From assembly GCA_022646745.1 (NCBI GenBank), contig CP060262.1, forward strand, positions 1,410,001 through 1,442,000: a DNA stretch of 32,000 bases. Reading direction: 5' to 3'. The translations under genes were made by a program, and so were the position numbers. The notes beneath the pieces were generated by a model that had not been told where the DNA came from, made no database searches, and saw only the letters and a program-made list of their open reading frames with translations. Positions 10,761 through 32,000 of the stretch are shown here, piece by piece. Positions within the stretch are counted from its first letter, which is position 1; each line of letters opens with the position of its first letter. The stretch comes from Planctomycetales bacterium. GTDB lineage: Bacteria > 4484-113 > JAFGCY01.

Positions 10761-10786
10761 TCTGTGGAACTCTGTGTTGAGAAAAC
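10761..10786. repeat. dispersed repeat family B, copy 2
   Basis: tctgtggaactctgtgttgagaaaac. Shares ctctgtgttg-gagaaaac with copy 3. Confidence 0.75.
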
Positions 10787-10891
10787 TGCTTCAAGCCAGC
10801 TCATTGCCATCCGAGTAAAGCGAGCTGCTCTGTCACTCTGATCGGGTCTGCTTTCCGCTCTCGGCTCCCTGCATGCTGCCGCAGGCAGCTC

Positions 10892-11344
10892 CTATTCCCC
10901 GTCGCCGTCCGTCTCCACACGCTGGCGGCGCAGCAGTTCCTGGATGCCGGCGGCGTCGATCTCCGCCGGGCGGGAGGCGGCGATGTTCTCTCCCTGGATC
11001 AGCTCGTAGATCTCATGGCGGTGGATCTGCACATGCCGCGGGGCCTTCACCCCGACGCGCACGCTCTCGCCCTTCACGCTGACCACCAGCACCTCGATCT
11101 GGTCCAGCCCGTCCAGCTCGATCACCACGGAGTCGTCCACCTTGCGTGTCAGGCGGATCGGGGACATCGCCCCGTCGTCGCCGCCGGGCATGGCATCAAT
11201 CTGCACATTGCCGGGCATCAGGGAGACGGGCCGGTCCACGGAGAAGGAGAATCTCACCACGCCGCGCTCAACGGAAAGCACCTCGACCTCGTAAGTGGGG
11301 CCGAGCATGATCTTCTCTCCCGGTTTGCGCGTCAGGACCAGCAC
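10892..11344 (-). CDS. csrA: tandem (fused two-domain) CsrA-family RNA-binding protein
   Basis: GTG start. Residues 1-50, MLVLTRKPGEKIMLGPTYEVEVLSVERGVVRFSFSVDRPVSLMPGNVQ, align with CsrA but lack the GVxAPxxVxVHRxEIY motif. Residues ~63-120, IRLTRKVDDSVVIELDGLDQIEVLVVSVKGESVRVGVKAPRHVQIHRHEIYELIQ, form a canonical CsrA domain. Total length is 150 aa versus ~60-75 aa for normal CsrA. Confidence 0.85.
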   Translation of the reverse strand: MLVLTRKPGEKIMLGPTYEVEVLSVERGVVRFSFSVDRPVSLMPGNVQIDAMPGGDDGAMSPIRLTRKVDDSVVIELDGLDQIEVLVVSVKGESVRVGVKAPRHVQIHRHEIYELIQGENIAASRPAEIDAAGIQELLRRQRVETDGDGE

Positions 11345-11399
11345 TACCCTGTCATTCTATCCCAAAATTAAATAATTAGGTATTTGGCCCGGGCCCGGC

Positions 11400-16701: not shown

Positions 16702-19533
16702 CTAGATGCTCTCCCCAAGGAAATACCCGACCGCCGACAGGTCCACCTCGTTGACGATGCCGTCGAGGTTGCTGTCGTAGAAGGGCAGGTAGCCAGGGCT
16801 GGTCTTCAGCAGGCCGTGCTTGCTGTGGATCAGGTCGTAGTCCACCATGTCCACGTCGTTGTCAGCGTCGGCATCGCCGGGCAGGTTGAAGATCCAGCAG
16901 GGGATCGTCGTGACCGGGCCCTGGTTGCCACCGGCGTCATAGACGTACACATTCAGCTGCGCCGCCTGGTTGGGCAGGCCGGGCACGTTGATCAGGCCGT
17001 CGAACACGCCGCCGCTCTCCACATCGACGATGGTGTCCAGGCCGGGCACCAGCTCACCGAAGGGGGCGACGTCCAGCCAGTAGCGCACCTTGCTCACGTC
17101 CACCGGGTTCTCCACGCTGACGGCGAACTGCTGCAGGTTCGGCGCCAGGCCGACGCTGCTGCCCGGAATGAAGTCCACGCCGTCGATGCTCGGGAAGTCC
17201 TCCTGGTAGGCGCGGCCGACGGTGATGTCGTCCAGCCACCAGCCGGTGGCTTCACCGGTGTCCTCGCCGGCGCCGCTGGCATCGGACTCGAAGAAGAACA
17301 GCACACGCACGGTCTTGCCGGCGAAGGCCGACATGTCAACCGCCGCCGTGCTCCAGCCCGGCAGGTAGCCGCTCCAGTAGCTGTCCTTGCTGACGCCCTT
17401 CAGCTTGCCGGGGCTGTAGCTCGCGCCCTCGTCGTCAGTCACGAGCACCCAGGCGCGGTCCTTCTCGCTGCCACCGTTCTCGATGTTGAAGTGGTGGTGG
17501 AACACCAGGCTCGGGTCGGAGATGCCCTTGAAGCTGATCCGGCGGCTGATCAGCGCGTCGGTCTCGAAGGGGCTGTATGAGTTGAAGTCGTTGACAATGT
17601 GCTGCGCGAAAGCGCCGCTGTTGGTCTGGCCGGCCTGGTCCTTCCACAGCGCGGAGCCGTTGGCACGCACCGTGCCGCTGCTCCAGCCCGCCTGCTGCTT
17701 GACGGCATCCATCAGCGCATCGTTGTAGTAGCGGAAGTCCGCCGGGTAGAAGTCACGCTCGGGGTCCTCGAAGTCCTCCTGCAGCGGGAAGGTGGCCGGA
17801 GAGTTGTCAACGATCACGTCCAGCGAGCGCGAGACGGGCTGGCCGTCGATCACCGTGCTGAAGCGCAGGTTGACACTCTCGAACAGGTAGTTGCTGAAAT
17901 CCACCGTGAAGTCCCAGGGCGCGCTCGTCAGCACCTGGGCCACTTCCTCATTCACGTAGAGCACCACGCTGTCCGGGCTGCCGGCCACGTTGATGCTGAA
18001 CTGCTTCGTGCCGCTGACGGTCAGGCTGTCCAAGAGCGGCAGCTCGATCGCCTCGGCGGCCAGCACCTCGAAGATGCCGGGCAGGTCCACACGGCGCACC
18101 GGGCTGGAGCCGGAGAAGCCGCTGGTCGGCTGGCCGGTGTCGTACATCATCGCGCGGATCTCTGAGTTGGTCAGGTCCGACTTGAAGCTCCACATCAGCG
18201 CGGCCACGGAGGCCACGATCGGGGCGCTGAAGCTGGTGCCCTGGCTGTTCGGCACATAGGCGCTGTCACCGGTCTCGCGGCAGCTCTTGAGCGAGTTGCC
18301 CGGGGCCGCCATGTCGACATAGGTGCCGAAGTTGCTGAAGCCGGCGCGTGCGTCATTGGTGCCGACGGAGGTGGAGCCTGTGCTGATCGAGTTGGTGTAG
18401 CTGCAGGGGTAGTGCGCGTCACTGGTGTTGTCATTTCCGGCTGCGCTGACGAAGATCCCGCCGTTGTTCCAGATGAAGTTGACCATCGCCTGTTCCTGCG
18501 GGACGGGGCCGCCGTAGCTGCCCCAGCTCAGGTTGATCACGTCCGCACCGAGGTTGAAGCCGAGGTAGCAGCCGTCGATGATCGAGCCGAGCGGGGCGGA
18601 GCCGCCGTTGGCGATCTTCACCGGCAGCACGCGGATGTCGGGGGCCACGCCGGTGATGGTGCGCCCGTTGTTGCCCTCCGCCGCCACGATGCCGGCAATG
18701 AAGGTGCCGTGGCCGTCGCCGTCGGAGATGTTCGTGTTGTCATTGATCACGTTCAGCTTCTCGCCGGGGAAGTCCGCCGAGGTGAAGCAGGCGCGGTTCA
18801 GCTCCTCGTGCGTGGTACGCACGCCGGTGTCCACCACCGCCAGCCAGACGTCGCTGGCACCGCGGGTGAAGTCCCAGCCGGTGGAGGCACCGATCTTGTG
18901 CAGGCTCCACTGCCCGCCGCTGCCGCCGTTCGAATTGCTCGACAGGTAGTCCGGGTCATTCGGGGTGAAGCAGGCCTGGTGCAGCGGCTCGTAGAATGCG
19001 TGCTCGACGGCCGGGGCCAGCGAGGCATCGCTGCGAATCGCCATGATGATGCCGGCGGCATCACTGCCGTCCGTCGTCTGGAAGCAGGCGAAATTGTTGT
19101 CAGCCACATAGAGCTGAGTGCGGATCTCCAGCCCATAGTCCTGGGCGATCTTGTCCGTCCAGGCGATGAACTGCGTGTTCTGCTTGTTGATTGCATTGCC
19201 CTGGCTGGCCGCACTGCTGCTGCCTGCGCCCGGGAGCTGGCTGCCGCCCTTGAGCGCCGGGGCCTGCGGGTCGTAGGCCACCATGATCCGGCTGGCGTCA
19301 TAGTCCGTGCCGGCAGTACCGGGACTGTTCTCCAGCCGCAGGTAGGCATCCGCATAGCTGATGCGCTCGCCGCCCTTGAGGTCGAAGTAGGTACCGGCCT
19401 CATCCATCCCACCGGCGGCGGTGTCGCGGCTGGCGGACTGATCGACGGAACTGGACTGTCCCGCGCAGGAGGCGAGCAGGATTGCAAGCAGCAGGAAGAC
19501 GCCCAGACGGGCCGATGTCATGACCAATTTCAT
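16702..19533 (-). CDS. S8 subtilisin-like serine protease lipoprotein with C-terminal dockerin-like Ca-binding repeats
   Basis: Catalytic triad motifs VAVVDTGV, DGHGTFIAG and GTSFSAPIVAS. N-terminal MKLVMTSARLGVFLLLAILLASCAG (lipobox LASC). C-terminus GDADADNDVDMVDYDL...YDSNLDGIVNEVDLSAV. Confidence 0.9.
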   Translation of the reverse strand: MKLVMTSARLGVFLLLAILLASCAGQSSSVDQSASRDTAAGGMDEAGTYFDLKGGERISYADAYLRLENSPGTAGTDYDASRIMVAYDPQAPALKGGSQLPGAGSSSAASQGNAINKQNTQFIAWTDKIAQDYGLEIRTQLYVADNNFACFQTTDGSDAAGIIMAIRSDASLAPAVEHAFYEPLHQACFTPNDPDYLSSNSNGGSGGQWSLHKIGASTGWDFTRGASDVWLAVVDTGVRTTHEELNRACFTSADFPGEKLNVINDNTNISDGDGHGTFIAGIVAAEGNNGRTITGVAPDIRVLPVKIANGGSAPLGSIIDGCYLGFNLGADVINLSWGSYGGPVPQEQAMVNFIWNNGGIFVSAAGNDNTSDAHYPCSYTNSISTGSTSVGTNDARAGFSNFGTYVDMAAPGNSLKSCRETGDSAYVPNSQGTSFSAPIVASVAALMWSFKSDLTNSEIRAMMYDTGQPTSGFSGSSPVRRVDLPGIFEVLAAEAIELPLLDSLTVSGTKQFSINVAGSPDSVVLYVNEEVAQVLTSAPWDFTVDFSNYLFESVNLRFSTVIDGQPVSRSLDVIVDNSPATFPLQEDFEDPERDFYPADFRYYNDALMDAVKQQAGWSSGTVRANGSALWKDQAGQTNSGAFAQHIVNDFNSYSPFETDALISRRISFKGISDPSLVFHHHFNIENGGSEKDRAWVLVTDDEGASYSPGKLKGVSKDSYWSGYLPGWSTAAVDMSAFAGKTVRVLFFFESDASGAGEDTGEATGWWLDDITVGRAYQEDFPSIDGVDFIPGSSVGLAPNLQQFAVSVENPVDVSKVRYWLDVAPFGELVPGLDTIVDVESGGVFDGLINVPGLPNQAAQLNVYVYDAGGNQGPVTTIPCWIFNLPGDADADNDVDMVDYDLIHSKHGLLKTSPGYLPFYDSNLDGIVNEVDLSAVGYFLGESI

Positions 19534-19741
19534 ATCCTCACAGCGATGATGCCCTAAGATGCCTGTCAAAGGGATATTGCCCGGTTACCAGCCGGTATTG
19601 CCTCGGCGCACGTGTCAGGGCGCCGGCGGGCACAGTTTAGACTACCGGCCCCGGCTGGTGTTCCATTTATACCTTATAGATTTGCAGCAATCAATATTCC
19701 CCGGAAAGCTTTAGCCGGATGTGAGCCGGGCTCCACCCCGC

Positions 19742-19755: not shown

Positions 19756-21213
19756 ATGGCTGGAACACTGAGAGTCCGATTCGCCCCGTCACCGACGGGC
19801 TACCTGCACACCGGTGGCGCGCGCACCGCTCTGTTCAACTACCTCTGGGCCAAGGGCCAGGGCGGCGTGTTCATCCTGCGCGTGGAGGACACCGACGAGG
19901 AGCGCTCCACCGAGGAAAGCATGCGCGCGATCCTCGACGGCCTGCAGTGGCTCGGGATCATGTGGGACGAGGGGCCGGACCCGAAGCAGTTCGGCGAGTC
20001 CATCGGGCCCTTCCCGCCCTACTACCAGAGCATGCGCCGCCCGCTGCACCAGGAATACATGAAGAAGCTCTGGGACGCGGGGCATGTGTTCTACTGTCCG
20101 GCAACGGCTGAGGAAATGACTGGCCCGGACGGCAAGAAGCTGACCTTCTCCCCCTACCGCGACATCACGAGAGAGGAGCAGGAGAAGCGGCTGGCTGCCG
20201 GCGAGGTGATGCCGGTGCGCTTCCGCTGCCCACGTGATGTGGAGGTCAGCTGGGAGGATGCCGTGCGAGGCAAGGTTACGTTCAGCAGCAATGAGGTCGG
20301 CGACTTCGTGCTGTTCAAGGGCAACGGCCAGCCGTTGTACAACTTCGTCGTGGTCTGTGATGACATCGACATGCAGATCACGAACGTGCTGCGCGGCGAG
20401 GACCACATCTCCAACACCCCGAAGCAGATCCTCTTGCATGAGGCGCTTGGGCATACCCCGCCGGAGTTCGGGCATGTGCCGCTGATCGTCGGGATGGACC
20501 GCCAGAGGTTGTCAAAGCGCCACGGTGCCACGGCGGTGGATGCCTACGAGGAGCAGGGTGTGCTGCCGGAGGCGATGGTGAACTTCCTCGCGCTGATCGG
20601 CTGGGCACCTGGGGATGACCGCGAGAAGATGACGCTCGAGGAGATGAAGCAGGCCTTCGATCCGCACCGCTGCACCAAGGCGGCGGGGGCTTTCAACCCT
20701 GACAAGCTGAAATTCTTCAATGAGCTGTACATCCGCGAGCTGTCGCCGGATGCGCTGCTGGAGCGCCTGCGCCGCTTCATCCCGCCTGTCTGGCTTGAGC
20801 ACCGCGGTGAGGACTATGCAAAGCATGTGTTCACCCTGTTCCAGGAGAAGATCGCCTACCTGAACGAGATGGAGGCAAATGCCTGGTATTTCTTCCGCGA
20901 CCCCGTCGAGGCTGACAACAACGAGAAGAGCGTTGCCAAGTTCCTCACGGAGAATGAAAGTGCGAAGCAGGTGTTGTCCGAGATCGCAGCCGGGATGGAA
21001 GCGCTGGGCGATGGCGAGTGGACCGAGGAGAAGCTGGCCCCGATCGTGGACGGCTTCGTGGAGTCAAGCGGACTCGGGCGTGGCAAGGTGATGCAGCCCT
21101 GGCGCGTGGCCCTGACGGGCGATGCGATCAGCCCTGGCTTCTACGACCTCGTTGTCACGCTCGGCAAGGAGACGGTGCTGCGCCGCGTACAGCCCTGGAT
21201 CGACAGGCTGTAG
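19756..21213 (+). CDS. gltX: glutamate--tRNA ligase
   Basis: RFAPSPTGYLHTGGARTALFNY (HIGH-type motif), RLSKRHG (KMSKS-type motif), 485 aa. Confidence 0.95.
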   Translation: MAGTLRVRFAPSPTGYLHTGGARTALFNYLWAKGQGGVFILRVEDTDEERSTEESMRAILDGLQWLGIMWDEGPDPKQFGESIGPFPPYYQSMRRPLHQEYMKKLWDAGHVFYCPATAEEMTGPDGKKLTFSPYRDITREEQEKRLAAGEVMPVRFRCPRDVEVSWEDAVRGKVTFSSNEVGDFVLFKGNGQPLYNFVVVCDDIDMQITNVLRGEDHISNTPKQILLHEALGHTPPEFGHVPLIVGMDRQRLSKRHGATAVDAYEEQGVLPEAMVNFLALIGWAPGDDREKMTLEEMKQAFDPHRCTKAAGAFNPDKLKFFNELYIRELSPDALLERLRRFIPPVWLEHRGEDYAKHVFTLFQEKIAYLNEMEANAWYFFRDPVEADNNEKSVAKFLTENESAKQVLSEIAAGMEALGDGEWTEEKLAPIVDGFVESSGLGRGKVMQPWRVALTGDAISPGFYDLVVTLGKETVLRRVQPWIDRL

Positions 21214-21215
21214 GA

Positions 21216-21275
21216 GGTCAGTCCCGCGAAGCAGGACTGACCAGGGGTGCTGCATCCCGCCGCAGGCGGATGCAG
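21216..21275 (+). terminator. two consecutive 8-9 bp hairpins after gltX (no U tract)
   Basis: ggtcagtcc-cgcgaagca-ggactgacc (21216-21242) and ctgcatcc...ggatgcag (21250-21275). Confidence 0.4.
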
Positions 21276-21291
21276 TGGTCGCATTGCCAAC

Positions 21292-21319
21292 GGAGGCGCG
21301 CAACTTGCTTGCGCGCAAT
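21292..21319. repeat. family E hairpin repeat, copy 2
   Basis: ggaggcgcgcaacttgcttgcgcgcaat. Confidence 0.8.
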
Positions 21320-21365
21320 GTGGCGCAGCAATCATTCTCAGTGTCGCAATCCTGTCAACCATATC

Positions 21366-21393
21366 ATTGTGCGCAAGCGAGTTGCGCACCTCC
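21366..21393. repeat. family E hairpin repeat, copy 3 (inverted)
   Basis: attgtgcgcaagcgagttgcgcacctcc. Its reverse complement ggaggtgcgcaactcgcttgcgcacaat matches copy 2 at 25 of 28 positions. Confidence 0.8.
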
Positions 21394-21465
21394 AGACTTA
21401 CTTCTGCCTGTTGGCTCCTGCCTTTTGCCTGTTGCCCGATCCTTCAGCATGCGATAATCCCTTCC

Positions 21466-23088
21466 ATGCTGCGACTCCCCCTCCGCCTGCTTGTCATCTG
21501 CTGCGCGTTGACTGCCACTGCCTTCGCGCAGGAACCTGCCCCGCGCGACATCGTCACCGATGGCTGCAGCCTGGTCTCACCCTTCAATGTGATGAGCGCC
21601 ACTGTTGCCACATCCGAAAACCTCTACCCCTTGATCTGGGGCAGTGAACTGGCCAGTTCCAGCGATACCCGCGGCCTGCAGGGCACCAAGCCCGCCCCGG
21701 CCTGGCTCGGTACTTACGGCAGCGGGCGCGTCGCCATCTGGGACGGGCACCCGGCATTCTTCACCGCCGGTGCCGACGGACGTGATGACAACGACCGGTT
21801 GCGCACCCAGCTGATTGACTGGCTGCGGGATGGCGGCAGCGTGGCCTTCGCCCGCGGGCATGGAGAGAAGCCGATGGGCGAGGTGTTCAGCGGCGTGCCA
21901 TGGCAGCACCTGCTTGACGGCAGCGCCGAACCGCATGAAATTGATGGCGAGCTGACAACGGAGAATCTTGCTGGCAGCGGGCTGCTGGTGATCGGTTCCA
22001 GCTGGCAGCGCATCACTGAAAGTGAACTCGATGCCGTGGAGGATTATGTGCTCAACGGTGGCGGCCTGCTAGTGATCGGCATCGGCTGGGCCTACAGCGG
22101 TTATGCCGACGATCCCGACCCGGACCAGTACATCCCCAACCGGCTCGGTGAGCGCTTCGGCTGGCGGGTGCAGTTCAGCACCATCAAGGACCCCGGCTCG
22201 CCGATGGGCGAGGCCGGCACCCCGGCATTCAGTGTGCTGCCACTGGAACAGTACAATCCCGGCCGCATCGTGGTGATCTTGGAAGATCCTGACAGTGTGG
22301 TGCAGCGGGCCGCCGACAACCCGCAGGACATCTTCGTGGTGGAGGGGGAGCACACCGGGCTGTGCCTGCCGAATGAGTACTGGGGCCAGCTGGAATCCGT
22401 CGGCGGCATCATCGGGCTGTTTGATGAGATGTACGTGTCGCACAACCTGCTGATCGGCAATGCCAATCCACCCTACGATGGTGCGAAGCAGTGGTTTGTG
22501 CCCCAGCAGTCTGATGAGCCCGGCTGGTACATGCACAGTGGCAACCCGGTGGTCTACAAGCAGTACGCCGCGAAGGACATCGTGGAAACCTACAACAATG
22601 AGCACAGGCTGGGCTGGGGCATCGTGCATGAACTGGGGCACAACATGCACATCTCCAGCTGTGGCAACAACATGGTGCCGGACGGCACCGGAGAGAACTG
22701 GGCCAATGTCTGGAGCGTGTGGACCAACAACGCGATGGGCTGGCCGAACCATGAGAACTACGGCAGGGCAGGCGGGGACTACCACGAGCATCCGGACTAC
22801 GCGAAGCTCAGCTCTGACAACTGGATCCTGCTGGGCTGCCTGGACATGATCTGGCAACGCTACGGCTGGGACGGGATGCAGGCCTTCCTGACGGATGTGG
22901 CAACCCGGCGCGCAGCCGGGGAGAAGCTCAAGGACAATGCGGAGCGCCAGCGCCTGCTGATCGAGGGCATGAGCATCGGCTACGGCATCGACTTCTCGGA
23001 GCTGTTCGCCCACTGGGGCTTCCCCGTCAGCGACGAGACCCGTGAGCTGTTGTCAAAATACCCGAAGAACGACATCCCAATTCCATAG
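21466..23088 (+). CDS. secreted M60-like (enhancin-like) zinc metallopeptidase
   Basis: Signal peptide MLRLPLRLLVICCALTATAFAQE. HELGHNMH followed by E 18 residues later fits the gluzincin HExxH(8-28)E pattern I associate with M60-like peptidases. The track ORF's N-terminal extension (21247-21465) lies over repeats. Confidence 0.7.
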   Translation: MLRLPLRLLVICCALTATAFAQEPAPRDIVTDGCSLVSPFNVMSATVATSENLYPLIWGSELASSSDTRGLQGTKPAPAWLGTYGSGRVAIWDGHPAFFTAGADGRDDNDRLRTQLIDWLRDGGSVAFARGHGEKPMGEVFSGVPWQHLLDGSAEPHEIDGELTTENLAGSGLLVIGSSWQRITESELDAVEDYVLNGGGLLVIGIGWAYSGYADDPDPDQYIPNRLGERFGWRVQFSTIKDPGSPMGEAGTPAFSVLPLEQYNPGRIVVILEDPDSVVQRAADNPQDIFVVEGEHTGLCLPNEYWGQLESVGGIIGLFDEMYVSHNLLIGNANPPYDGAKQWFVPQQSDEPGWYMHSGNPVVYKQYAAKDIVETYNNEHRLGWGIVHELGHNMHISSCGNNMVPDGTGENWANVWSVWTNNAMGWPNHENYGRAGGDYHEHPDYAKLSSDNWILLGCLDMIWQRYGWDGMQAFLTDVATRRAAGEKLKDNAERQRLLIEGMSIGYGIDFSELFAHWGFPVSDETRELLSKYPKNDIPIP

Positions 23089-23949: not shown

Positions 23950-24235
23950 GGTCTGGACAAACACAGAGTTCCAAAGAGATCAACGGAGAATCACTTGATT
24001 TAACCCATTCGCAGTCGAACTCATGCGAGCCACTACCGCTGAAGCGGATAGCTCCGCATCCCTCATCCCGCATCCCACATCCCCGATCTGTACTGCTCAA
24101 GATTCCACTTTCTGAATCTGTTATGTCCGTCCCATCGGCGTGATCATCTCCCTGCATGAACCTGCCGGCCCGGGCTGCGTAATATTTCCCCGTGCCAAGT
24201 CAGTGCGGGCTGGCGGTTCTGCCCAGGACCATCAC

Positions 24236-25280: not shown

Positions 25281-26708
25281 TCAGCCCTGCTCGCGAGCCA
25301 GCTGGCCGAGCCGCTGGATCGCCCCCTCCACTTCATCCGTCCAGCGCAGCGCGCAGTTCAGCCGGATGCAGTTGCCATAGCGCGCCTGGCTGGTGAAGAT
25401 CGGCCCCGGCGCAATCGAGATCCCCTCCGCCATCGCCGCCTGGAACAGCCGGATCGCGTTGGCTCCACCCGGCAGCTCCACCCACAGCACGTAGCCACCG
25501 CTGGGCCGGGTCAGGCGTGTGCCGCGCGGGAAGTGCTCGCGCACTGACAGCGAGCAGCGCTCCATGCAGTCCCTGAGTGTGCGGCGGAAGCGGCGCAGGT
25601 GTGCATCATAGGCCCCGCTGGCGAGGAAATCCGCCAGCGCCAGCTGCTGGATCGACGGTGCGCCGATCGTGGTGTTGAACTGCAGCTGCTCCATTTCCCC
25701 GAGCAGGGACTGCCCCGCCGCAATCCAGCCGATGCGCAGCCCGGGCGCCAGGCTCTTCGAGAAGGACGAGCACAGCACCACACGGCCCTCCGTATCCCAG
25801 GCCTTGATCGGCGTCGGGCGGCGGCCGGAGTACTGCAGCTCACCGTAGATGTCGTCCTCCAGCACCATGAAGTCGTGCTTCGCCGCCAGCTCCAGCAGCT
25901 TCTGCTTGGACTGGTCCGGCATCAGGCTGCCGAGCGGGTTGCTGAAGCAGGGGATCGTCAGCACGGCGCGGATCCGCCGCACACTGGCCGCCTCCTCCAG
26001 TGCCCGCAGGTCCATCCCGGTCTGCGGGCTGGTCGGCAGCTCCAGCGCACGCAGGCCGTGGTGCTCCAGCACCTGCAGCAGGCCGAAGAAGGTCGGCGAT
26101 TCCACCGCGACTGTGTCCCCCGGCTTGGTCAGTGCCTGCAGGGTCAGGTTCAGCGCATCCATCCCCCCGCTGGTGATCAGGATGTCCCGCGAGCTCAGCT
26201 CGCCCATCCACTTCAGGCTGCGCGCCGCGATCTGCCGCCGCAGCTCCGGCAGGCCCGGCGGGAACTGGTACTGCATTGCAGCTTCGGTCTGCTCGCGTAC
26301 GCAGCGGCCGAGGATCGAAGCCATCCGCTTCACGGGCAGGAAGTCCAGGCTGGGAGCCGCGCAGCCCAGCTGCACATGCTCCGGGTTGGCCGCACTGTGC
26401 AGGAAGTCGTGCAGCATGCGGTTGCCCGGTACATTGGTTCGTTCCATGTCCGGGCTGGTGATCGCGGGAAGCTCCAGCGGCCGCGCCGTACTGTGTCGCA
26501 CATAGTGGCCGCTCTGGGGCAGGGTCTCGATCAGTCCACGGCTTTCCAGCAGGCCGTAGGCCTGCATCACGGTCGAGATGCTGATGCCGAGTTCCGTGCT
26601 CATCGCACGCAGCGACGGCATCTTGTCCCCGGGTTGCATCACACCGCTGCCGATCCGGCGGGCGATGTTGTCCGCGACAGTTTCGTAAAGGAATCCCTGC
26701 TGAGCCAT
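25281..26708 (-). CDS. MocR-family transcriptional regulator (GntR wHTH + class I aminotransferase-like domain)
   Basis: N-terminal SLRAMSTELGISISTVMQAYGLLESRGLIE wHTH. C-terminal fold-type-I domain with SFSKSLAPGLRIGW (PLP-lysine motif). Its stop abuts the azlD stop with 0 bp between (convergent). Confidence 0.9.
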   Translation of the reverse strand: MAQQGFLYETVADNIARRIGSGVMQPGDKMPSLRAMSTELGISISTVMQAYGLLESRGLIETLPQSGHYVRHSTARPLELPAITSPDMERTNVPGNRMLHDFLHSAANPEHVQLGCAAPSLDFLPVKRMASILGRCVREQTEAAMQYQFPPGLPELRRQIAARSLKWMGELSSRDILITSGGMDALNLTLQALTKPGDTVAVESPTFFGLLQVLEHHGLRALELPTSPQTGMDLRALEEAASVRRIRAVLTIPCFSNPLGSLMPDQSKQKLLELAAKHDFMVLEDDIYGELQYSGRRPTPIKAWDTEGRVVLCSSFSKSLAPGLRIGWIAAGQSLLGEMEQLQFNTTIGAPSIQQLALADFLASGAYDAHLRRFRRTLRDCMERCSLSVREHFPRGTRLTRPSGGYVLWVELPGGANAIRLFQAAMAEGISIAPGPIFTSQARYGNCIRLNCALRWTDEVEGAIQRLGQLAREQG

Positions 26709-26709
26709 T

Positions 26710-26778
26710 GCATAACAGATGTACCTTATGCTGCAGGAATTGCAACTGTTATGCTTGTTTTGCAGGCATCTGTTATGC
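26710..26778. promoter_or_regulatory. candidate operator: 11 bp perfect inverted repeat plus a direct copy (CTGTTATGC)
   Basis: gcataacagat (26710-26720) and atctgttatgc (26768-26778) are exact reverse complements. A further ctgttatgc lies at 26746-26754. The first copy begins 2 nt upstream of the regulator's ATG. Confidence 0.4.
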
Positions 26779-26939
26779 CTTTCACGGATGGGATATGCAG
26801 GGGATGTGATTCAGGTACTTGCCAGGTGGGCAACCAGGGAGGGTGGAAGCAAATAACCGCTTCCGAGACTTTATCCGGCCTGTCTTTTCAGGCTCTTCAT
26901 TGCCTGCCACAAACAGCACATGCTTGCGGCAGCAAAGCT

Positions 26940-27113
26940 TCAGGCCGAGGCGATCCTGTCCAGCAGGTAGATCTTCTCGCGGGTATCAAGGCCTTCAAGC
27001 ACCGGGTTGCGGCGCAGTTCCATCAGGAGCAGCTCGAAATCCCAGCTGTTGACCATGTGGTTGAAATGGCTGGTTTCCTCCAGCCGCTGCGAATGTAGTT
27101 CTTCAGCCCGCAT
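26940..27113 (-). CDS. small protein S1 (57 aa), WDFE-LL--LR-NPV family; not in the ORF track
   Basis: Hand translation: MRAEELHSQRLEETSHFNHMVNSWDFELLLMELRRNPVLEGLDTREKIYLLDRIASA*. GGGAGG lies 5 nt upstream of the ATG. Same length as S3 and collinear with S2 and S3 from the Trp to the C-terminus (34 residues each). Confidence 0.6.
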   Translation of the reverse strand: MRAEELHSQRLEETSHFNHMVNSWDFELLLMELRRNPVLEGLDTREKIYLLDRIASA

Positions 27114-27320
27114 GCGGACCTCCCGTTTCCCTTTTCTCCCAACCGCAGCCAGTCCATTTGCCCCGAACTGCTGCGATTGAAATAATCGTAATTAAGTTAC
27201 CTATAGTTAGCCGTAATGAAAAGGGATTTTAATTAACAACCAGTTAAATGGAAGTCAAGCGGTAGTTAACCTTTGGTAAGGCCAGTACTGATGCGGATTG
27301 ATCGCTTGCCGGGCGAGTGC

Positions 27321-27536
27321 TCAGGCCCTGGCGAAGTATTCCTTTGCAATGATCGGTGCGCCGCTTACCACGCATTTCAGGACGGGGTTTCTGCGCAGGT
27401 CTGCCAGTAACTCCTCAAAGTCCCAGCGCTGCAGCAGGTGCTGCTGGTCCCATTCCGCCTGTTCCCAGCGATTGATGCCCCGCTGGTTCCTGTTCTCCTC
27501 ACTGCCCCGCTCTTCCCGGATTCCGTCTACCTGCAT
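27321..27536 (-). CDS. small protein S2 (71 aa), WDFE-LL--LR-NPV family
   Basis: MQVDGIREERGSEENRNQRGINRWEQAEWDQQHLLQRWDFEELLADLRRNPVLKCVVSGAPIIAKEYFARA. GGAGG lies 4 nt upstream. The leader ggaatgcactggaggca is conserved with S3. Confidence 0.65.
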   Translation of the reverse strand: MQVDGIREERGSEENRNQRGINRWEQAEWDQQHLLQRWDFEELLADLRRNPVLKCVVSGAPIIAKEYFARA

Positions 27537-27706
27537 GTTGCCTCCAGTGCATTCCTTCCCACAGCGCGGATCGCATTCCAGCCAACCATCCTTGTCAGCC
27601 TGCGAGCTAATTGATAATACCGAAATTTAACCGGAATTTCAGAATATCCGGCAAATTTAACTTTTATTCCCAAAGCTTGATCAGGTGGCCAGGTCCGCCC
27701 CGTAAC

Positions 27707-27736
27707 AAAAAGTGGCCCCACCATCTGCAGGGCCAC
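27707..27736 (-). terminator. rho-independent terminator of lipoprotein A
   Basis: Minus strand: gtggccc-loop-gggccac followed by tttttg. The stem sequence is shared with the terminator of lipoprotein B. Confidence 0.7.
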
Positions 27737-27792
27737 TCCATATCCACTCTGGGTAGCCGGCTCACCTCCCTGTGATGCCGGCCTCGATTCAC

Positions 27793-29289
27793 TTAGTTAT
27801 CGTTACCGCTGTCGTCTCCGCCACCCTTGCCGGAGTTGTCATCGTCTTCACCGTCATCGTCGCCGCCCTTGCCGGAGTTGTCGTCATCCCCGCCATTGTC
27901 GTCGCCCATGTCATCGCCGCCGTTGTCGTCGCCGGCACCGTCATCATTGCCGCCGCCATTGTCGTCACCGGCGCCATCATCATTGCCACCGCCATTGTCA
28001 TCACCGGCGCCGTCATCGTTGCCGTTGCCGCCATTGTCATCACCGATGTCATCGCCTCCGTTGTCGTCACCGCCGTTGCCGCCGCTGATGCCATCGTCCT
28101 CGAGCTTGACGCGGCGGGCATGCCAGCTGTCACCGCTCAGGTCGCCGGTGATCTCCACGAACATCCCGACCATGAACAGCGCGGGATCCGCATTGCGGTC
28201 GTCGCCGATGCGCCAGACGGTGCTGTCGGAGAGGTCGAAGTCCTGGCCGGCCACCGTGATGATGCTGTCGGAGATCTTCTCGATGAAGCCCTTCACCTCG
28301 AGCTCGTCGATGCCCGTGCCGCTGCCGATGCCGCTGTCATCGCCGCTGCCGGAGCCGCTGCCGATGAAGCCGTCCTCGGTCTTGACCTTGCTCGCGATCC
28401 AGCCGCCGTTGCCGTCGGTGAATCCCTCCACCTCGACGAAAGTGCCGGCGGTGAACTGGGCCGGGTCCGCATTGCGGTTGTCACCGATCCGCCAGACCGT
28501 GCTGCTGGACAGGGCGAAGGTGCTGCCGCCGACGGTGATGCTGTCGGCGCTGATGCTCTCGATCAGTCCCTTGACCTCAAGCTCGTGCAGGCCGCTGTTG
28601 CTGCTGTCATCGATACTGCCGCCGCTGAAGCTGGTGTCCGGCAGTCCGTCGCCGTCGCTGTCATCGAAGCTGTCATCGAAGCTGCCGTCGTTGTTGTCGT
28701 CCACGCGGGTCTCGCCGCCGCGGCGGCGGTGCTGGCGGTGGCTGCTCTCGGAGTTGCCCTTGTCATCGTTCAGGTGGAACTCGACCTCAAGCGCATCAAG
28801 CTGCCCGTCGCTGTCGGAGTCGCTAACGCCGATCTGCTGCAGCAGGTCCGTGACTGCCTGGTTGGCCAGGTCCACCGGGAAGTACAGCTCGATCTCGTCG
28901 AGGCGGCCGTCACCGTCCAGGTCCTGGGTGGACTTGAACTCGATCTTGACCAGGTAGCCGTCGCCGCTGGGGATGCCCTTGAACTCGTACTTGCCGAGGC
29001 TGTCGGTCACATCCGTGCCCATCAGCTGGCCAGTGGAGGTGTTGATCAGGCTGATCAGCAGGCCGGCCATGCCGTCGCCCACAGCGCTGGAGGCCTTCAC
29101 ATCCGTGCCCTGAAGCACGGTGCCATTCACATTGGTGGTGCCGGCGGCCACACCGTTCCCGTTGCCGAGGCCATTGTCACCCGGCAGGGGGGCGCTTGCA
29201 CCGCCACCGCCGCAGGAGGCGATGGTCAGGCTGGTGATGACCGCCGCGAGGAGGCCGATTGCGTTGTTTCTGAATCCCGTGTTTTTCAT
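27793..29289 (-). CDS. lipoprotein A: CarboxypepD_reg-like domain, Asp-rich Ca-binding-like loops, two DUF5666-like repeats, ~95 aa D/G/N/S tail
   Basis: ATG 29289 (AGGAG 8 nt upstream). MKNTGFRNNAIGLLAAVITSLTIASCGGGG lipobox. GTDVTDSLGKYEFKGIPSGDGYLVKIEF. DLDGDGRLDEIE. Two copies of ELEVKG-IE-IS...STVWRIGD-RNADPA-F..G-FVE. C-terminus GGNGGDDNGGDDIGDDNGGNGNDDGAGDDNGGGNDDGAG...DDSGNDN. Confidence 0.85.
   Translation of the reverse strand: MKNTGFRNNAIGLLAAVITSLTIASCGGGGASAPLPGDNGLGNGNGVAAGTTNVNGTVLQGTDVKASSAVGDGMAGLLISLINTSTGQLMGTDVTDSLGKYEFKGIPSGDGYLVKIEFKSTQDLDGDGRLDEIELYFPVDLANQAVTDLLQQIGVSDSDSDGQLDALEVEFHLNDDKGNSESSHRQHRRRGGETRVDDNNDGSFDDSFDDSDGDGLPDTSFSGGSIDDSSNSGLHELEVKGLIESISADSITVGGSTFALSSSTVWRIGDNRNADPAQFTAGTFVEVEGFTDGNGGWIASKVKTEDGFIGSGSGSGDDSGIGSGTGIDELEVKGFIEKISDSIITVAGQDFDLSDSTVWRIGDDRNADPALFMVGMFVEITGDLSGDSWHARRVKLEDDGISGGNGGDDNGGDDIGDDNGGNGNDDGAGDDNGGGNDDGAGDDNGGGNDDGAGDDNGGDDMGDDNGGDDDNSGKGGDDDGEDDDNSGKGGGDDSGNDN
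27796..28100. repeat. coding low-complexity tandem repeats (about 36 bp period in part) encoding the D/G/N tail of lipoprotein A
   Basis: gccgccattgtcgtcaccggcgccatcatcattgcc-type units repeated (DDGAGDDNGGGN on the minus strand). Confidence 0.8.
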
Positions 29290-29370
29290 GTCAGTGCTCC
29301 TGAGTTGAATCTGATGTTGGTAGTGTACCTGCCAAGTAAATCCATAAACAGGTTCACTAATACGAATTAA

Positions 29371-29383
29371 CACCGGTGACACT
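29371..29383. promoter_or_regulatory. conserved CACCGGTGACACT element 82 nt upstream of the lipoprotein A start
   Basis: An identical 13-mer lies at 30950-30962, 83 nt upstream of the lipoprotein B start. The CACCGGTG core is palindromic. Confidence 0.45.
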
Positions 29384-29471
29384 CATGCATGGATTAATAC
29401 TGCATTAGGTGAAAATGATGATAAGCCCTTTATTTAAGGGACTTGTCGAGTATCCAGGGCAAAGGTGCACG

Positions 29472-29513
29472 TAAAAATGTGACCCTTATAACAGTCGCAG
29501 AAACAAGGGTCAC
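29472..29513 (-). terminator. candidate terminator after S3
   Basis: Minus strand: gtgaccctt-17 nt loop-aagggtcac followed by attttta. Confidence 0.45.
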
Positions 29514-29554
29514 TAATGTTTTTCAGTGGAGTTTGCCTGCAGCTTATTCCCGGT

Positions 29555-29728
29555 TCAGGCGCAGGCGAGATAGTCCTGGGCCACGATGAAGCAGTCATCG
29601 GTATCGCCGCGCATCACGGGGTTGTGGCGCAGGGCCGTCAGCAGTTCCTCAAAGTCCCAGCGGCGCAGTTGCTCGAGGTAGTACTCCTCGACCACAAGCC
29701 GCCCGGCGATGGTTGTCCGGTCATTCAT
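29555..29728 (-). CDS. small protein S3 (57 aa), WDFE-LL--LR-NPV family
   Basis: Trimmed from track ORF 29555..29797 to ATG 29728, which has GGAGG 6 nt upstream: MNDRTTIAGRLVVEEYYLEQLRRWDFEELLTALRHNPVMRGDTDDCFIVAQDYLACA. Confidence 0.65.
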   Translation of the reverse strand: MNDRTTIAGRLVVEEYYLEQLRRWDFEELLTALRHNPVMRGDTDDCFIVAQDYLACA

Positions 29729-29867
29729 GACCTGCCTCCATGCATTCCCGTCTACAGCACACTGGCCATCCGGCGGACTTCCCTGTCCGCTGGCCATGCA
29801 TACATTTTATCGGAATTTAACTTTCCTGTGGAGGGACAATTCCAGGCTGTTTCAGCGGTCACATTCC

Positions 29868-29900
29868 AAAAAAAAGTGGCCCCGCAATCCGCAGGGCCAC
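29868..29900 (-). terminator. rho-independent terminator of lipoprotein B
   Basis: Minus strand: gtggccc-tgcggattgcg-gggccac followed by tttttttt. Confidence 0.75.
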
Positions 29901-29952
29901 TTTCGGTCAGTTGCCGGTCCGCCTCCTGCGGGCCGGTAATGCACGTCGCTAA

Positions 29953-30867
29953 TCAGATGTCGTCGCCGGAGTCATCACCGGAATCGTCTCCACTATCGTC
30001 ACCGGAGTCATCTCCACTGTCGTCGCCGGAGTCATCGCCGCTGTCATCACCGGAATCATCGCCGACATCATCGCCACTGTCATCGCCGGAGTCGTCTCCG
30101 ACATCGTCGCCGCCATTGTCATCCCCGCCGTTGTCGTCACCGACATCGTCGCCGCCATTGTCGTCCCCACCGTTGTCGTCGCCGATGTCATCGCCGCCGT
30201 TGTCGTCGCTGGAGTCGTGGTCGTCATCATCATCGGAGATGCCGTCGGCATCGCTGTCATCGAAGCTGTCCTCAAACTGGCCATCGCCGTCGTCGTCGAT
30301 CAGGGTCTCGCCGCTGCGGTGGCGGTGCTCACTGTGGTGGTCCTCCATATGGCCGTGGTCGTCGCTGTAATGGAACTCAACCTCCACTGCATCGAACTCA
30401 CCGTCATCGTCCGAGTCACTCACACCGATGCGCTGCAGCAGCTGGGTGACGGACTGGTCAGCAAGGTTGACCGGGAAGTTCAGCTCGACATGGTCCGGAT
30501 TGCCGTCGCCGTCCAGGTCCTGGCTGGACTGGAACTCGACCTTGACCATGTAGCCGTTGCCGCTCGGCACGCCCTTGAACTCATAATGTCCGGTGCTGTC
30601 GGTCACATCGGTGCCGAATGACTGGCCGCTGCCGTTGAGCAGGGAGACGAGGATGCCGGGCAGGCCGGAGCCGACCGTGGCGGAAACCTTTACATCGCTG
30701 CCCTGCACCAGCTGGCCGCTGACATTGGTGGTACCCGGAGCAACGCCGTTGCCGGGGTCGGGCTGGCCGGCCGCTCCACCGCCGCCGCCGCAGGAAGATA
30801 CTGCGAGAGCGCCCAGCAGGATGCCGGAGGCGAGGATACGGTTGCTCCACTTGCTTGAGTTCTTCAT
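29953..30867 (-). CDS. lipoprotein B: paralog of A lacking the DUF5666-like repeats, with a His-rich segment and ~90 aa (DDSG/DDNGG)n tail
   Basis: ATG 30867 (GGAG upstream). MKNSSKWSNRILASGILLGALAVSSCGGGGG lipobox. GTDVTDSTGHYEFKGVPSGNGYMVKVEF. DLDGDGNPDHVE. EFHYSDDHGHMEDHHSEHRHRSGE. The tail ends DDSGDDSGDDSGDDSGDDSGDDSGDDSGDDSGDDI. Confidence 0.85.
   Translation of the reverse strand: MKNSSKWSNRILASGILLGALAVSSCGGGGGAAGQPDPGNGVAPGTTNVSGQLVQGSDVKVSATVGSGLPGILVSLLNGSGQSFGTDVTDSTGHYEFKGVPSGNGYMVKVEFQSSQDLDGDGNPDHVELNFPVNLADQSVTQLLQRIGVSDSDDDGEFDAVEVEFHYSDDHGHMEDHHSEHRHRSGETLIDDDGDGQFEDSFDDSDADGISDDDDDHDSSDDNGGDDIGDDNGGDDNGGDDVGDDNGGDDNGGDDVGDDSGDDSGDDVGDDSGDDSGDDSGDDSGDDSGDDSGDDSGDDSGDDI
29956..30240. 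repeat. coding tandem repeats (12 bp DDSG units, then DDNGG/DDVG units) of lipoprotein B
   Basis: gtcatcaccggaatcgtctccactatcgtcaccggagtc.... Synonymous codons vary between units. Confidence 0.8.
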
Positions 30868-30911
30868 TTGATTGCTCCAGGTGAGGTTCATGATGTGATG
30901 AGTGTACCGAG

Positions 30912-30968
30912 ACTGAAAGTGATCGAACAGTGTCACTACTGGCTGATTGCACCGGTGACACTTTCAGT
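30912..30968. promoter_or_regulatory. 10 bp inverted repeat ACTGAAAGTG / CACTTTCAGT enclosing CACCGGTGACACT, in the divergent lipoprotein B / MocR intergenic region
   Basis: actgaaagtg (30912-30921) and cactttcagt (30959-30968). A third actttcagtg lies at 31137-31146, 3 nt before the regulator's ATG. Confidence 0.45.
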
Positions 30969-31148
30969 TGCCCCGCCAGTTGATACACGGATACCTATTT
31001 AGATATCATTGCCGTTTGGAACATGTGTTCTTTTCTGAATAAATGATAGGCATTCTCAGTTCCCGGGGCCGCTGGCAAGTGTGCCCGCCCCTAATTGAAA
31101 CAAGTGTCTCTTGCCCGGGATAGTCACAGCGGGGATACTTTCAGTGCA

Positions 31149-32000
31149 ATGGATCTAAGAATTGACAAAGACAGCGAGCAGCCGATCTACGAGCAGATCC
31201 GCCGGCAGATCGTGCAGCTCGTCCGTGACGGGCTGCTGCCCCCGGGCAGCAAGATCCCTTCCGTGCGCCAGCTTGCGCTGAAGCTCGGTGTCGGCAAGAA
31301 CACGGTGAGCCAGGCCTATGACGAACTGTCGGCCGAAAGCATCATCGAGACCAGGCATGGCAGTGGTACATATATCACTGACAGCCCGGGGATTGCCATC
31401 GAGCACAACCTGCGCACCACGAAGGAGAACGGCAACGGCGGAGATTCCCGCAAGATGCGCTGGGATCCCTATAACTTCCGCAGCGAATTCTTCGGCCTGC
31501 CGCGCAGCCGTCGTGACGAGGAGCTGGTTGACTTCACCCGTGCTTCGCCTGATCCGGAACTGTTCCCCTTTGAGCGCATCAAGCAGGTCAGCGCCAACAT
31601 GCTGTGGTACCCCAAGGAGTTCTTCTTCGATGTGGGACACCCCCAGGGCTACCAGCCGCTGGTGGAACACCTCGAGAAGCAGATGGCGCTCAGTGGGGTG
31701 GCGATGGCGGAAGGCGAGAATGACATCATCGTCACCGCCGGCTTCCGCCGTGCACTCGACCTGATCCTCGGCTTCATCCTGCAGCCGGGCCAGAAGGTCG
31801 CCGTGGAGGTGCCGAGCTACAGCGGCCTGCTCAACGTGCTGATTGCCAAGCGCGTCGGCATTGAGCCGGTGCCGATGGACAGCGAAGGCATGGACACCGC
31901 CTACCTCGAGGGCCTCGTTCGCCGTGGTGAGATTTCCGCGGTGATCACTATCCCGACCTACCACAATCCGACCGGGATCACGATGTCCCAGGCCCGCCGC
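31149..32000 (+). CDS. MocR-family transcriptional regulator (N-terminal 284 codons; continues past the right edge)
   Basis: Hand translation from ATG 31149: MDLRIDKDSEQPIYEQIRRQIVQLVRDGLLPPGSKIPSVRQLALKLGVGKNTVSQAYDELSAESIIETRHGSGTYI (GntR wHTH), then an aminotransferase-like region ...VTAGFRRALDLILGFILQPGQKVAVEVPSYSG...ITIPTYHNPTG. Open to the window end, so absent from the ORF track. Confidence 0.85.
   Translation, partial: MDLRIDKDSEQPIYEQIRRQIVQLVRDGLLPPGSKIPSVRQLALKLGVGKNTVSQAYDELSAESIIETRHGSGTYITDSPGIAIEHNLRTTKENGNGGDSRKMRWDPYNFRSEFFGLPRSRRDEELVDFTRASPDPELFPFERIKQVSANMLWYPKEFFFDVGHPQGYQPLVEHLEKQMALSGVAMAEGENDIIVTAGFRRALDLILGFILQPGQKVAVEVPSYSGLLNVLIAKRVGIEPVPMDSEGMDTAYLEGLVRRGEISAVITIPTYHNPTGITMSQARR

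Follow-up and report, generated by a model that had tools for sequence, protein, structure and literature searches.

Gene order at the locus and in related lineages

The DNA analysed here, called the window below, is a stretch of 32,000 nucleotides from the genome of a Planctomycetales bacterium (GTDB lineage Bacteria; 4484-113; JAFGCY01; GenBank assembly GCA_022646745.1, contig CP060262.1, positions 1,410,001 to 1,442,000 of the forward strand). Reading its minus strand from nt 31148 to nt 26709, five genes are encountered: lipoB (nt 29953-30867, 304 aa), S3 (nt 29555-29728, 57 aa), lipoA (nt 27793-29289, 498 aa), S2 (nt 27321-27536, 71 aa) and S1 (nt 26940-27113, 57 aa). The lipo genes encode lipoproteins and the S genes encode a family of small proteins. 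This 4.4-kb block is flanked on one side by MocR1 (nt 25281-26708, minus strand, 475 aa), a co-oriented gene for a regulator with GntR and Aminotran_1_2 domains (Pfam), and on the other by the divergent MocR2 (nt 31149..32000, plus strand), which runs off the end of the window and is 509 aa at full length in contig L006 (nt 7051-8580).

The gene module is real and conserved, and is not an artefact. Every element that an earlier note on this DNA had listed was found where that note had placed it, and its repeated unit, consisting of a lipoprotein gene, a terminator of its own and a small gene with its own promoter, was borne out. Homology between the two units reaches into the non-coding DNA: terminators and leaders are common to both, as is the 13-mer CACCGGTGACACT, of which there are exactly two copies (nt 29371 and 30950; expected 0.00), and the previously listed leaders GTTAAATT and GGAATGCA..TGGAGGCA were both recovered. 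Nor does the interior of the block contain any enzyme or transporter genes, again in agreement with the note. An 80-aa open reading frame (ORF) for S3 did not hold. The protein is identical to the database protein P0001, which begins MNDRTT, and the conserved Shine-Dalgarno spacing fits the same start, so S3 is taken as 57 aa from the ATG at nt 29728.

Related contigs were found in metagenomes, of activated sludge among others, in records labelled 'bacterium', UBP7 or 4484-113. The window species and L001 share the same order, in which MocR2 is divergent from lipoB-S3-lipoA-S2-S1-MocR1, with azlDC beyond. Lineages L009 and L104 have this order minus MocR1, while L005 and L010 carry a single unit, MocR2 being divergent from lipoA-S2-S1. 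In the more distant L102, MocR2 faces a lipoprotein gene of the lipoA type. That gene (L102 nt 3234-4654) has been called as two ORFs (151 and 321 aa) abutting at nt 3689, which reflects either a genuine splitting of the gene or else a frameshift or an error of assembly. MocR2 is present and divergent in all seven lineages, and in six of them it faces one or more lipoprotein genes, with a gene of the S2 type and one of the S1 type behind them. The expectation that S genes, lipoprotein genes and a MocR gene would keep company in related genomes is borne out in these six; judged by gene order, the co-localisation of S genes, lipoprotein genes and MocR2 is conserved within a narrow clade, with exceptions.

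Promoters, operator boxes and terminators

Promoters were aligned by anchoring on the -10 element. All eight lipoprotein promoters from five lineages follow a single plan, AAGTGTCAC-N17-AGTGRCCC, TGTTNN, 17 nt, TACACT, 32-33 nt, ATG, and both promoters of L104 do so as well, making ten of the ten promoters examined. The second box (box R) is an inverted copy of the first (box L), and the bipartite operator they form abuts the -35 element. At lipoB (minus strand, nt 30901-30963) box L is AAGTGTCAC (nt 30955-30963) and, after N17, box R is AGTGACAC (nt 30930-30937); there follow the -35 element TGTTCG, 17 nt, the -10 element TACACT (nt 30901-30906) and a 5' untranslated region (5'UTR) of 33 nt. 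At lipoA (minus strand, nt 29322-29384) the corresponding elements are GAGTGTCAC (nt 29376-29384), N17, AGTGAACC (nt 29351-29358), TGTTTA, 17 nt and TACACT (nt 29322-29327), and the 32-nt 5'UTR, CCAACATCAGATTCAACTCAGGAGCACTGAC, is almost invariant between lineages. The composite operator pattern has two matches in the window (expected 0.00), and in all loci compared it occurs at lipoprotein promoters only. With at most one mismatch, AAGTGTCAC has seven matches in the window, six of them inside the block. Enrichment is restricted to such stricter or composite forms, neither GTGACACT with one mismatch nor AAGTGTCAC with two mismatches being enriched across the window.

A position weight matrix (PWM) was trained on the eight lipoprotein sites alone, and both strands of each 12-32-kb locus were scanned with it. 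The next-best sites lie, in identical register, at the S3 promoters of three of three lineages (scores 9.6, 19.1 and 20.6; background fractions 1.4e-4 to 4.6e-5), and at the S2 promoters of L009 and L010 (two of the six S2 promoters). The matrix also finds, on the MocR2 strand just 5' of that gene, a pair of boxes in each of five lineages (scores 13.2-13.8). In the window this MocR2-proximal pair (plus strand, nt 31077-31139) consists of AAGTGTGCC (nt 31077-31085), N16 and AAGTGTCTC (nt 31102-31110), and is followed by a putative MocR2 promoter, TTGCCC (nt 31111-31116), 17 nt, GATACT (nt 31134-31139). As GATACT ends 9 nt before the MocR2 ATG, MocR2 is probably translated from an mRNA with little or no leader, and no Shine-Dalgarno sequence can be seen before the gene (nt 31111-31151). 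The lipoprotein promoters of L104, which lay outside the training set, score 28.2 and 24.2, and in the distant L102 each side of the divergon has a site (18.0 and 15.6). A metagenome scan for the composite operator returned 87 stretches, all of them chance matches, none with a TACACT -10 element or an S gene. It is likely that lipoB, lipoA, S3 (with S2 in some lineages) and MocR2 itself constitute one local regulon, the boxes of which MocR2 would bind.

The S genes have promoters of a different make, with near-consensus -10 elements, and a promoter scan places promoter-like sites at equivalent positions 5' of S3 and S2. That of S3 (minus strand, nt 29804-29866) reads TCCACA, 17 nt, TAAAAT, with AGTTAAATT within the spacer, and carries the operator boxes GAATGTGAC (nt 29858-29866) and ATTGTCCC (nt 29833-29840) in the same register as the lipoprotein genes. 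The S2 promoter (minus strand, nt 27614-27642) reads CTGAAA, 17 nt, TATTAT, with GGTTAAATT within the spacer, and the S1 promoter (minus strand, nt 27231-27259), conserved in five of five lineages, reads CTTGAC, 17 nt, TTAATT, with ATTTAAC within the spacer and a 5'UTR of 117 nt. The 17-nt spacer of every S promoter thus contains a conserved GGTTAAATT (ATTTAAY in S1; window nt 27620-27636, 29810-29826 and 27237-27253), possibly the site of a second regulator. Assignment of the S promoters to the sigma-28 type (CCGATAA in S3) was considered and dropped, as neither the spacing nor the other copies agree with it.

A conserved 5'UTR block that includes the Shine-Dalgarno sequence abuts S3 (minus strand, nt 29729-29760; GCTGTAG..GGAATGCA.TGGAGGC), and the same block precedes S2 (minus strand, nt 27537-27567). 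Its GGA-rich portion of about 26 nt, GCTGTAGGC.GGAATGCAYTGGAGGC, abuts the ATG of S2- and S3-type genes and is nearly invariant in eight of eight aligned leaders from five lineages and in the S2 leader of L104; the S3 leader of L104 departs from it (GGAATAAGCAATGGAGGC). It is kept at the nucleotide level, whereas the N-terminal coding part behind it diverges. Control of the leaders by CsrA/RsmA would call for A(N)GGA motifs in hairpin loops, one of them overlapping the Shine-Dalgarno sequence, and for a csrA gene in the genome; GGA motifs are frequent in the leaders, and some lie in hairpin loops (WIN_S3, L009_S3), in folds that are neither shared nor significant.

Strong intrinsic terminators follow both lipoprotein genes. 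The terminator of lipoB (minus strand, nt 29868-29904) has a 14-bp stem and a U-run (-26.1 kcal/mol, z = -5.2) and is kept in other lineages with compensatory changes in the stem, and that of lipoA (minus strand, nt 27704-27739) has a 13-bp stem and a U-run (-24.4 kcal/mol, z = -5.4); the two are 88% identical across 34 nt. A simple terminator scan missed them: the U-run of lipoA is interrupted (UUUUUGUU) and the hairpin copy of lipoB has a loop of 11 nt, the limit of the scan being 8. A further, terminator-like hairpin lies 3' of S3 (minus strand, nt 29477-29513; -18.2 kcal/mol, z = -5.1), followed by AUUUUUA, and its arms are the operator-like boxes GTGACCCTT and AAGGGTCAC. Judged by these sequence features, lipoA and lipoB are predicted to be monocistronic, with a promoter and a strong terminator for each.

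MocR2 and its place in the MocR family

Both regulators have the GntR winged helix (PF00392; E 2.9e-15 for MocR1 and 9.8e-18 for MocR2) and the Aminotran_1_2 domain (PF00155; E 2.7e-35 for MocR1 and 9.2e-7 for MocR2 as clipped by the window, the domain being on record in the 509-aa orthologue). The lysine that binds pyridoxal phosphate (PLP) is kept in both, in the aligned motifs SFSK and TYSK, the latter being that of MocR2. Among NCBIfam models both are nearest to PdxR (NF052282), yet score below its 320-bit cut-off (284 bits for MocR1, 168 bits for the MocR2 fragment), and neither is filed there as PdxR, GabR, EhuR or PtsJ.

MocR regulators are PLP-dependent switches for the metabolism of vitamin B6, gamma-aminobutyric acid (GABA), taurine and ectoine, and for some transporters. 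MocR2 resembles the regulators of GabR-gabTD (Bacillus subtilis), TauR-tpa and PdxR-pdxST in joining a GntR winged helix-turn-helix to a fold-type-I aminotransferase-like domain with the PLP lysine, and in being transcribed divergently from its presumed targets. It differs from them in that these targets are secreted lipoproteins and orphan mini-proteins, and not enzymes or transporters for PLP, GABA, taurine or ectoine, in being translationally coupled to a large lipoprotein gene, and in belonging to a subfamily that has multiplied within one genome. By layout, both MocR2 and MocR1 lie in MocR divergons with operator boxes, to which they would bind. MocR regulators are known to form divergons in which the targets are regulated positively, to autoregulate, and to use two to four boxes, direct and/or inverted (PMC5320631); the layout here fits this. 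As in known MocR divergons, repeated 8-9-bp direct or inverted boxes stand 5' of the -35 element of the target and before the regulator gene (PMC5320631). The commonest MocR motif class is 'two direct plus one inverted' (PMC5320631, Suvorova and Rodionov 2016). The boxes of MocR1 are laid out exactly in this way, and those of a MocR2 paralogue in L108 likewise, whereas on the lipoprotein side of MocR2 box R is inverted relative to box L, and the regulator side carries two boxes in direct orientation. Nowhere does the 2016 survey of MocR regulons (PMC5320631) use the word 'lipoprotein', and targets of this kind, acidic lipoproteins of calcium-binding type and orphan mini-proteins, are presumably without precedent in the family.

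To the right of the window (L006 nt 2146-7054), MocR2 overlaps by 4 nt a gene for a 612-aa lipoprotein with two dockerin-like EF loops, a DUF5666-like C-terminal part and the lipobox LASC at Cys17. Genes for proteins of 212 aa and 98 aa and for a secreted M28-PA-PDZ peptidase follow 3' of it, and this arm is kept in all lineages. When MocR2 was used as the query of a homology search, 716 proteins were found at E <= 1e-30. The top 120 are mostly of about 510 aa and 56-95% identical, and several of them belong to one and the same genome; a few of these 120 are shorter (probably partial) or reach 555 aa. The ~510-aa subfamily has at least three copies per genome. In the paralogues examined, which belong to the same genome or to related ones, the MocR gene likewise overlaps a homologous gene, for a dockerin-loop lipoprotein of 611-793 aa (E 5e-20 and 2e-36 against the 612-aa protein). 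The divergent neighbour of the cassette in L107 (nt 7432-11554) is feoAB, and that of the L108 cassette (nt 6021-11659) is a 572-aa DUF5666 lipoprotein gene; in L108 the box GTCCCAGT occurs twice, direct and 25 nt apart, together with an inverted copy. Of two cassettes in L109 (nt 3494-13368), the first faces a 588-aa DUF5666 lipoprotein gene, and the second is co-oriented with that gene and downstream of it. No S gene was found in the other cassettes examined. One MocR subfamily appears to have expanded, in a lineage-specific manner, as MocR-lipoprotein cassettes; as a whole it seems to be connected with secreted lipoproteins and, in one paralogue, with iron uptake.

The lipoproteins

The products of lipoA and lipoB are 63% identical along their alignment, which is gap-free only over the N-terminal ~230 residues, and lipoA carries an inserted pair of DUF5666 domains that is missing from lipoB. 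A lipobox (criterion: a signal peptide ending [LVI][ASTVI][GAS]C) with Cys26 is present in both, as IASC in lipoA and VSSC in lipoB, and is kept in most orthologues. Both products are extremely acidic, and on this evidence they are predicted to carry their lipid anchor at Cys26. The lipoB protein has a beta-sandwich-like N-domain, four DxDxDG loops and an acidic DDNGG/DDSG tail, and contains 82 Asp+Glu as against 9 Lys+Arg. In lipoA there are two strict EF-hand loops, DLDGDGRLDEIEL (residue 123) and DSDSDGQLDALEV (residue 157), that match PROSITE PS00018 (D-x-[DNS]-x-[DENSTG]-[DNQGHRK]-x-[LIVMC]-[DENQSTAGC]-x(2)-[DE]-[LIVMFYW], with the PROSITE exclusions at x positions applied), two further DxDxDG loops and an acidic tail of the DDNGG type. 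All lipoA orthologues retain one strict loop or more, and four of five lineages retain both.

Two domain families had earlier been named in connection with these proteins. DUF5666 (PF18914) is indeed found in lipoA, in two stretches (88.4 bits, E 3.6e-25; gathering cut-off 27 bits), but has no Pfam match in lipoB, and CarboxypepD_reg (PF13620) stays under its 32.3-bit gathering cut-off in both (20.1 bits in lipoA, 27.0 bits in lipoB). The AlphaFold2 model of lipoA is confident for the DUF5666 domains only (predicted local distance difference test, pLDDT, 72-88 by 10-residue block), and these are modelled as oligonucleotide/oligosaccharide-binding (OB) folds. The nearest solved folds are PilY2 and CusF/SilB (Foldseek template modelling score 0.6-0.7, E >= 0.004). 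For both domains the CusF/SilF/SilB-C metallochaperones and PilY2 come nearest, at a Foldseek probability of 1.0, but with identities of 12-21% and non-significant E-values the resemblance is in fold only, and no Met/His/Trp Cu(I) site of the CusF type is seen in the DUF5666 sequences when read by eye. There are no solved structures for any sequence relative of the lipoproteins. A homology search with their N-domain returned only 3 proteins and missed known orthologues, so it carries little information on distribution.

The acidic tail of lipoA (nt 27793-28100) differs in repeat number even among near-identical strains, the protein being 503, 498 and 484 aa in L006 (nt 10440-11951), L007 (nt 7662-9158) and L008 (nt 5988-7442), respectively, and the repeat unit is DDNGG, DDSG, DGSGDGTD or DDDS according to lineage. 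The tail behaves like a fast-evolving, slippage-prone stretch of low complexity. Bacterial EF-hand and dockerin loops provide a parallel, in that lipoA too has paired 12-residue loops of the form D-x-D-x-D-G-x-[ILV]-D-x-x-E in an extracytoplasmic protein; EfhP of Pseudomonas is another bacterial EF-hand calcium-binding protein. Unlike proteins of the dockerin or EfhP type, lipoA has its loops between a beta-sandwich-like domain and the OB-fold DUF5666 domains, and ends in an Asp/Gly/Asn/Ser tail of 80-110 residues with a strain-variable number of repeats.

In the three lineages that carry it, lipoB forms its own clade, with 70-90% identity internally versus 60-66% to lipoA, and the duplication is therefore a single old event. 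Because lipoB lacks DUF5666 and has only this level of identity, the two units are old paralogues, and the possibility that they are recent copies was rejected on the same grounds. A reasonable supposition is that both lipoproteins act as surface binders of Ca2+ or of other divalent cations. The earlier suggestion of calcium or metal handling gains support from the two PS00018 matches of lipoA, the DxDxDG loops and the MocR2 paralogue that faces feoAB. The lipoproteins are candidate surface calcium binders for organisms of activated-sludge flocs.

The small S proteins

S1, S2 and S3 share an invariant core, W-D-F-E-x-L-L-x-x-L-R-x-N-P-V, and an equally invariant A-x-A C-terminus. Two types can be told apart, S1 (...WDFELLLMELR...LLDRIASA) and S2 (...WDFEELLAELR...PIIAKEYFARA), and the S2 protein of the window is of the latter type, ending PIIAKEYFARA, with a 14-residue insertion. 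We infer that the S1 and S2 types form an ancient paralogous pair; S3 is, to judge from its sequence, a diverged duplicate of the S2 type. The ORFs keep 57 codons in six lineages, with S2 of the window species (71 aa), S2 of L001 (58 aa) and the S1 call in L104 (59 aa, from two extra in-frame N-terminal codons) as the exceptions in length. Whether they are under purifying selection had been put in question, and they are: the ratio of nonsynonymous to synonymous substitution rates (dN/dS) is 0.13-0.37 among S1 orthologues (dS about 1 to saturated), which are the most conserved of the three, and 0.09-0.19 between S2-type pairs, while S3, the quickest-evolving S protein, is more relaxed (0.42-0.88). 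By these codon-level measures all three S genes truly code for proteins, which make up an orphan family.

The family is confined to this lineage as far as very large searches reach. A profile search of 5.8 billion proteins gave 11 clusters, and an exhaustive hidden Markov model search of 1.84 billion representative proteins gave seven true members and no relative beyond this lineage. Profile searches could not place the S proteins, there being no match in Pfam, NCBIfam, PHROGs, PADLOC or PDB (best, TFIIH p52 at E 0.07). They are acidic, conserved chiefly in mid-protein, and without signal or leader motifs. Recognition of their A-x-A end by the PDZ domain of the M28 peptidase encoded nearby was considered and dropped, because the peptidase has a signal peptide and the S proteins have none. 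They represent a strongly constrained orphan family of small proteins with unusually well-defined promoters and leaders.

Proposed function of the block

On balance, we favour the explanation that the block holds the targets of a MocR divergon confined to one uncultivated lineage. MocR2 would bind the operator boxes as a dimer, and its PLP domain, on binding an amino compound, would drive the weak TGTTNN-17-TACACT promoters of the lipoprotein genes. GabR, TauR and PdxR drive the targets of their divergons likewise. MocR2 would also autoregulate, and the lipoproteins would bind Ca2+ or other divalent cations through their EF loops and poly-Asp tail. The S proteins would be cytoplasmic, and most likely small regulatory or adaptor proteins of this one cassette; this is the weakest step of the explanation, and such a role is a best guess of low confidence. 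MocR1 would be a separately acquired, autoregulated regulator of the adjoining azlCD exporter. If the regulon is real, it implies a wider range of uses for the MocR class, and the compact operator-promoter system would be amenable to in vitro work despite the uncultivated host.

A number of observations weigh against this explanation. The spacing of the boxes, about 25 bp, does not correspond to an integral number of helical turns, and a different regulator, with its gene elsewhere, could be the one that uses the boxes. MocR2-type boxes are lacking at the S2 and S1 promoters of the window, and in L104 the S3 promoter has box R alone (PWM <8) and the MocR2-proximal site is the weakest found (10.5), equalled by another site in the same locus. 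The S-bearing lineages are close relatives with extended synteny, so that co-localisation could in part be inheritance, and in L102 there is no S gene within 2.7 kb downstream of the divergon. As to the proteins, lipoB has no strict PS00018 match, only the looser DxDxDG loops, and the AlphaFold2 model of the N-domain (the CarboxypepD_reg-like region) is unreliable (pLDDT <50). The S model is a helix-helix-hairpin of low confidence (pLDDT 59), so any fold-based guess on the S proteins is weak; a Foldseek search with it was uninformative, its winged-helix-like matches being meaningless (E >= 4). Lastly, a fourth, divergent S paralogue, P0015 (L103 nt 6345-6518), is solitary, lying 3' of DNA-alkylation repair and adenine glycosylase genes with no lipoprotein or MocR gene nearby.

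Some of these points agree with a second explanation, less likely but deserving some weight, that the S genes are functionally independent neighbours, a lineage-specific cytoplasmic family (for example general regulators or stress proteins) copied once along with a lipoprotein gene. Each S gene has its own promoter, a strong terminator stands between it and the lipoprotein gene, the operator is absent from S1 promoters and from the S2 promoter of the window, the L103 paralogue has an unrelated context, neither L102 (in the 2.7 kb downstream) nor the other ~510-aa MocR cassettes have an S gene, and the lipoprotein/S duplication is a single old event. Against independence stand the operator of lipoprotein type, in the same register, at three S3 and two S2 promoters, and the S2-S1 pair, which in all six lineages, L010 with its different downstream context included, lies directly 3' of a lipoprotein gene.

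The MocR2 divergon could also be part of something larger. It is conceivable, though rather doubtful, that the whole MocR subfamily has been recruited as a standard envelope or metal switch, with the S proteins as a new class of small regulatory partners, and that the sensing of an amino compound is tied to the display of poly-Asp lipoproteins. The S proteins might in that case form a heterodimeric, winged-helix-like co- or anti-regulator, controlled through the leader block and the A-x-A end. If this were true, poly-Asp lipoprotein display could, for example, help in sludge to buffer cations, to hold flocs together or to nucleate minerals.

MocR1 and the azlCD genes

The earlier note had both MocR genes bracket the block. 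They do so in the window and in L001, but MocR1 is found only in the window species and this nearest relative (two of seven lineages) and is absent from L005, L009, L010, L104 and L102. Since it is missing from five of seven lineages, is only 29% identical to MocR2 and has a different operator, the core partner is MocR2 alone. The MocR1 operator (minus strand, nt 26711-26777) consists of two direct copies of CATAACAG 24 nt apart (nt 26770-26777 and 26746-26753) and an inverted copy (nt 26711-26718) that stops 2 nt short of the MocR1 ATG. A fourth box (nt 24118-24125) lies about 110 nt 5' of azlC, the likely ATG of which is at nt 24236 (read by eye), in a context, CTTTCTGNATCTGTTATG, that is conserved in L001. 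These four are the only exact matches to CATAACAG in the window (0.34 expected); all recur in the same layout in L001 and L006, and there are none in genomes that lack MocR1. That the boxes track MocR1 and that one precedes azlC suggests that MocR1 controls azlCD, and it is best read as an autoregulated azlCD regulator. Its distribution marks MocR1 as a late addition, apparently inserted between S1 and azlD and outside the core module.

Joint bracketing and control of the lipoprotein/S block by the two regulators is accordingly improbable. The flanking position of both genes in the window and L001 would suit it, and so would the 3' side of S1, where the hairpin before MocR1 has no U-run and read-through from S1 into MocR1 may occur; the restricted distribution of MocR1 and its divergence from MocR2 speak against it, as does the position of the CATAACAG boxes, which occur at the start of MocR1 and before azlC only and at none of the lipoprotein or S promoters.

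Other readings of the S genes and surrounding genes

There is very little to recommend the view that the S regions are conserved non-coding RNAs or regulatory leaders with incidental ORFs: the S leaders are long (75-125 nt) and their ~26-nt block before the ATG is conserved as nucleotides, but the S ORFs combine saturated synonymous change with a dN/dS well below 1, they retain both reading frame and 57-codon length, and the Shine-Dalgarno sequence keeps a constant spacing to the ATG. When the S leaders were folded, singly and as a consensus, no shared or significant RNA structure emerged (z -3.0 to +0.5), and an Rfam scan of nt 26500-31400 at E <= 1 gave only a chance snoRNA match. A hairpin with an AGGGAA loop, spotted by eye, did not prove general on folding.

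Equally remote is a reading of the units as toxin/immunity-like or RiPP-like pairs (RiPP, ribosomally synthesized and post-translationally modified peptide), which the tandem repetition of a large secreted and a small protein and the invariant A-x-A terminus of the S proteins might bring to mind; no toxin, peptidase, modifying-enzyme or transporter domain occurs in or beside the units, PADLOC gave no match, no RiPP-modifying enzyme, RiPP recognition element or export gene is present in the window or, for the loci compared, within flanking DNA of up to 10 kb, the S proteins are acidic, lack signal and leader motifs and are conserved in mid-protein, and the lipoproteins resemble ion-binding proteins and not toxins.

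Elsewhere in the window, the surroundings of the block are rich in predicted peptidases, with a subtilase of family S8 at nt 16702-19569 and an M60 enhancin-like protein at nt 21247-23088, and there is a weak aspartyl-protease-like match at nt 11400-13562. The window also encodes a class I Glu/Gln-tRNA synthetase (nt 19756-21213) and the DnaG primase (nt 925-2898).

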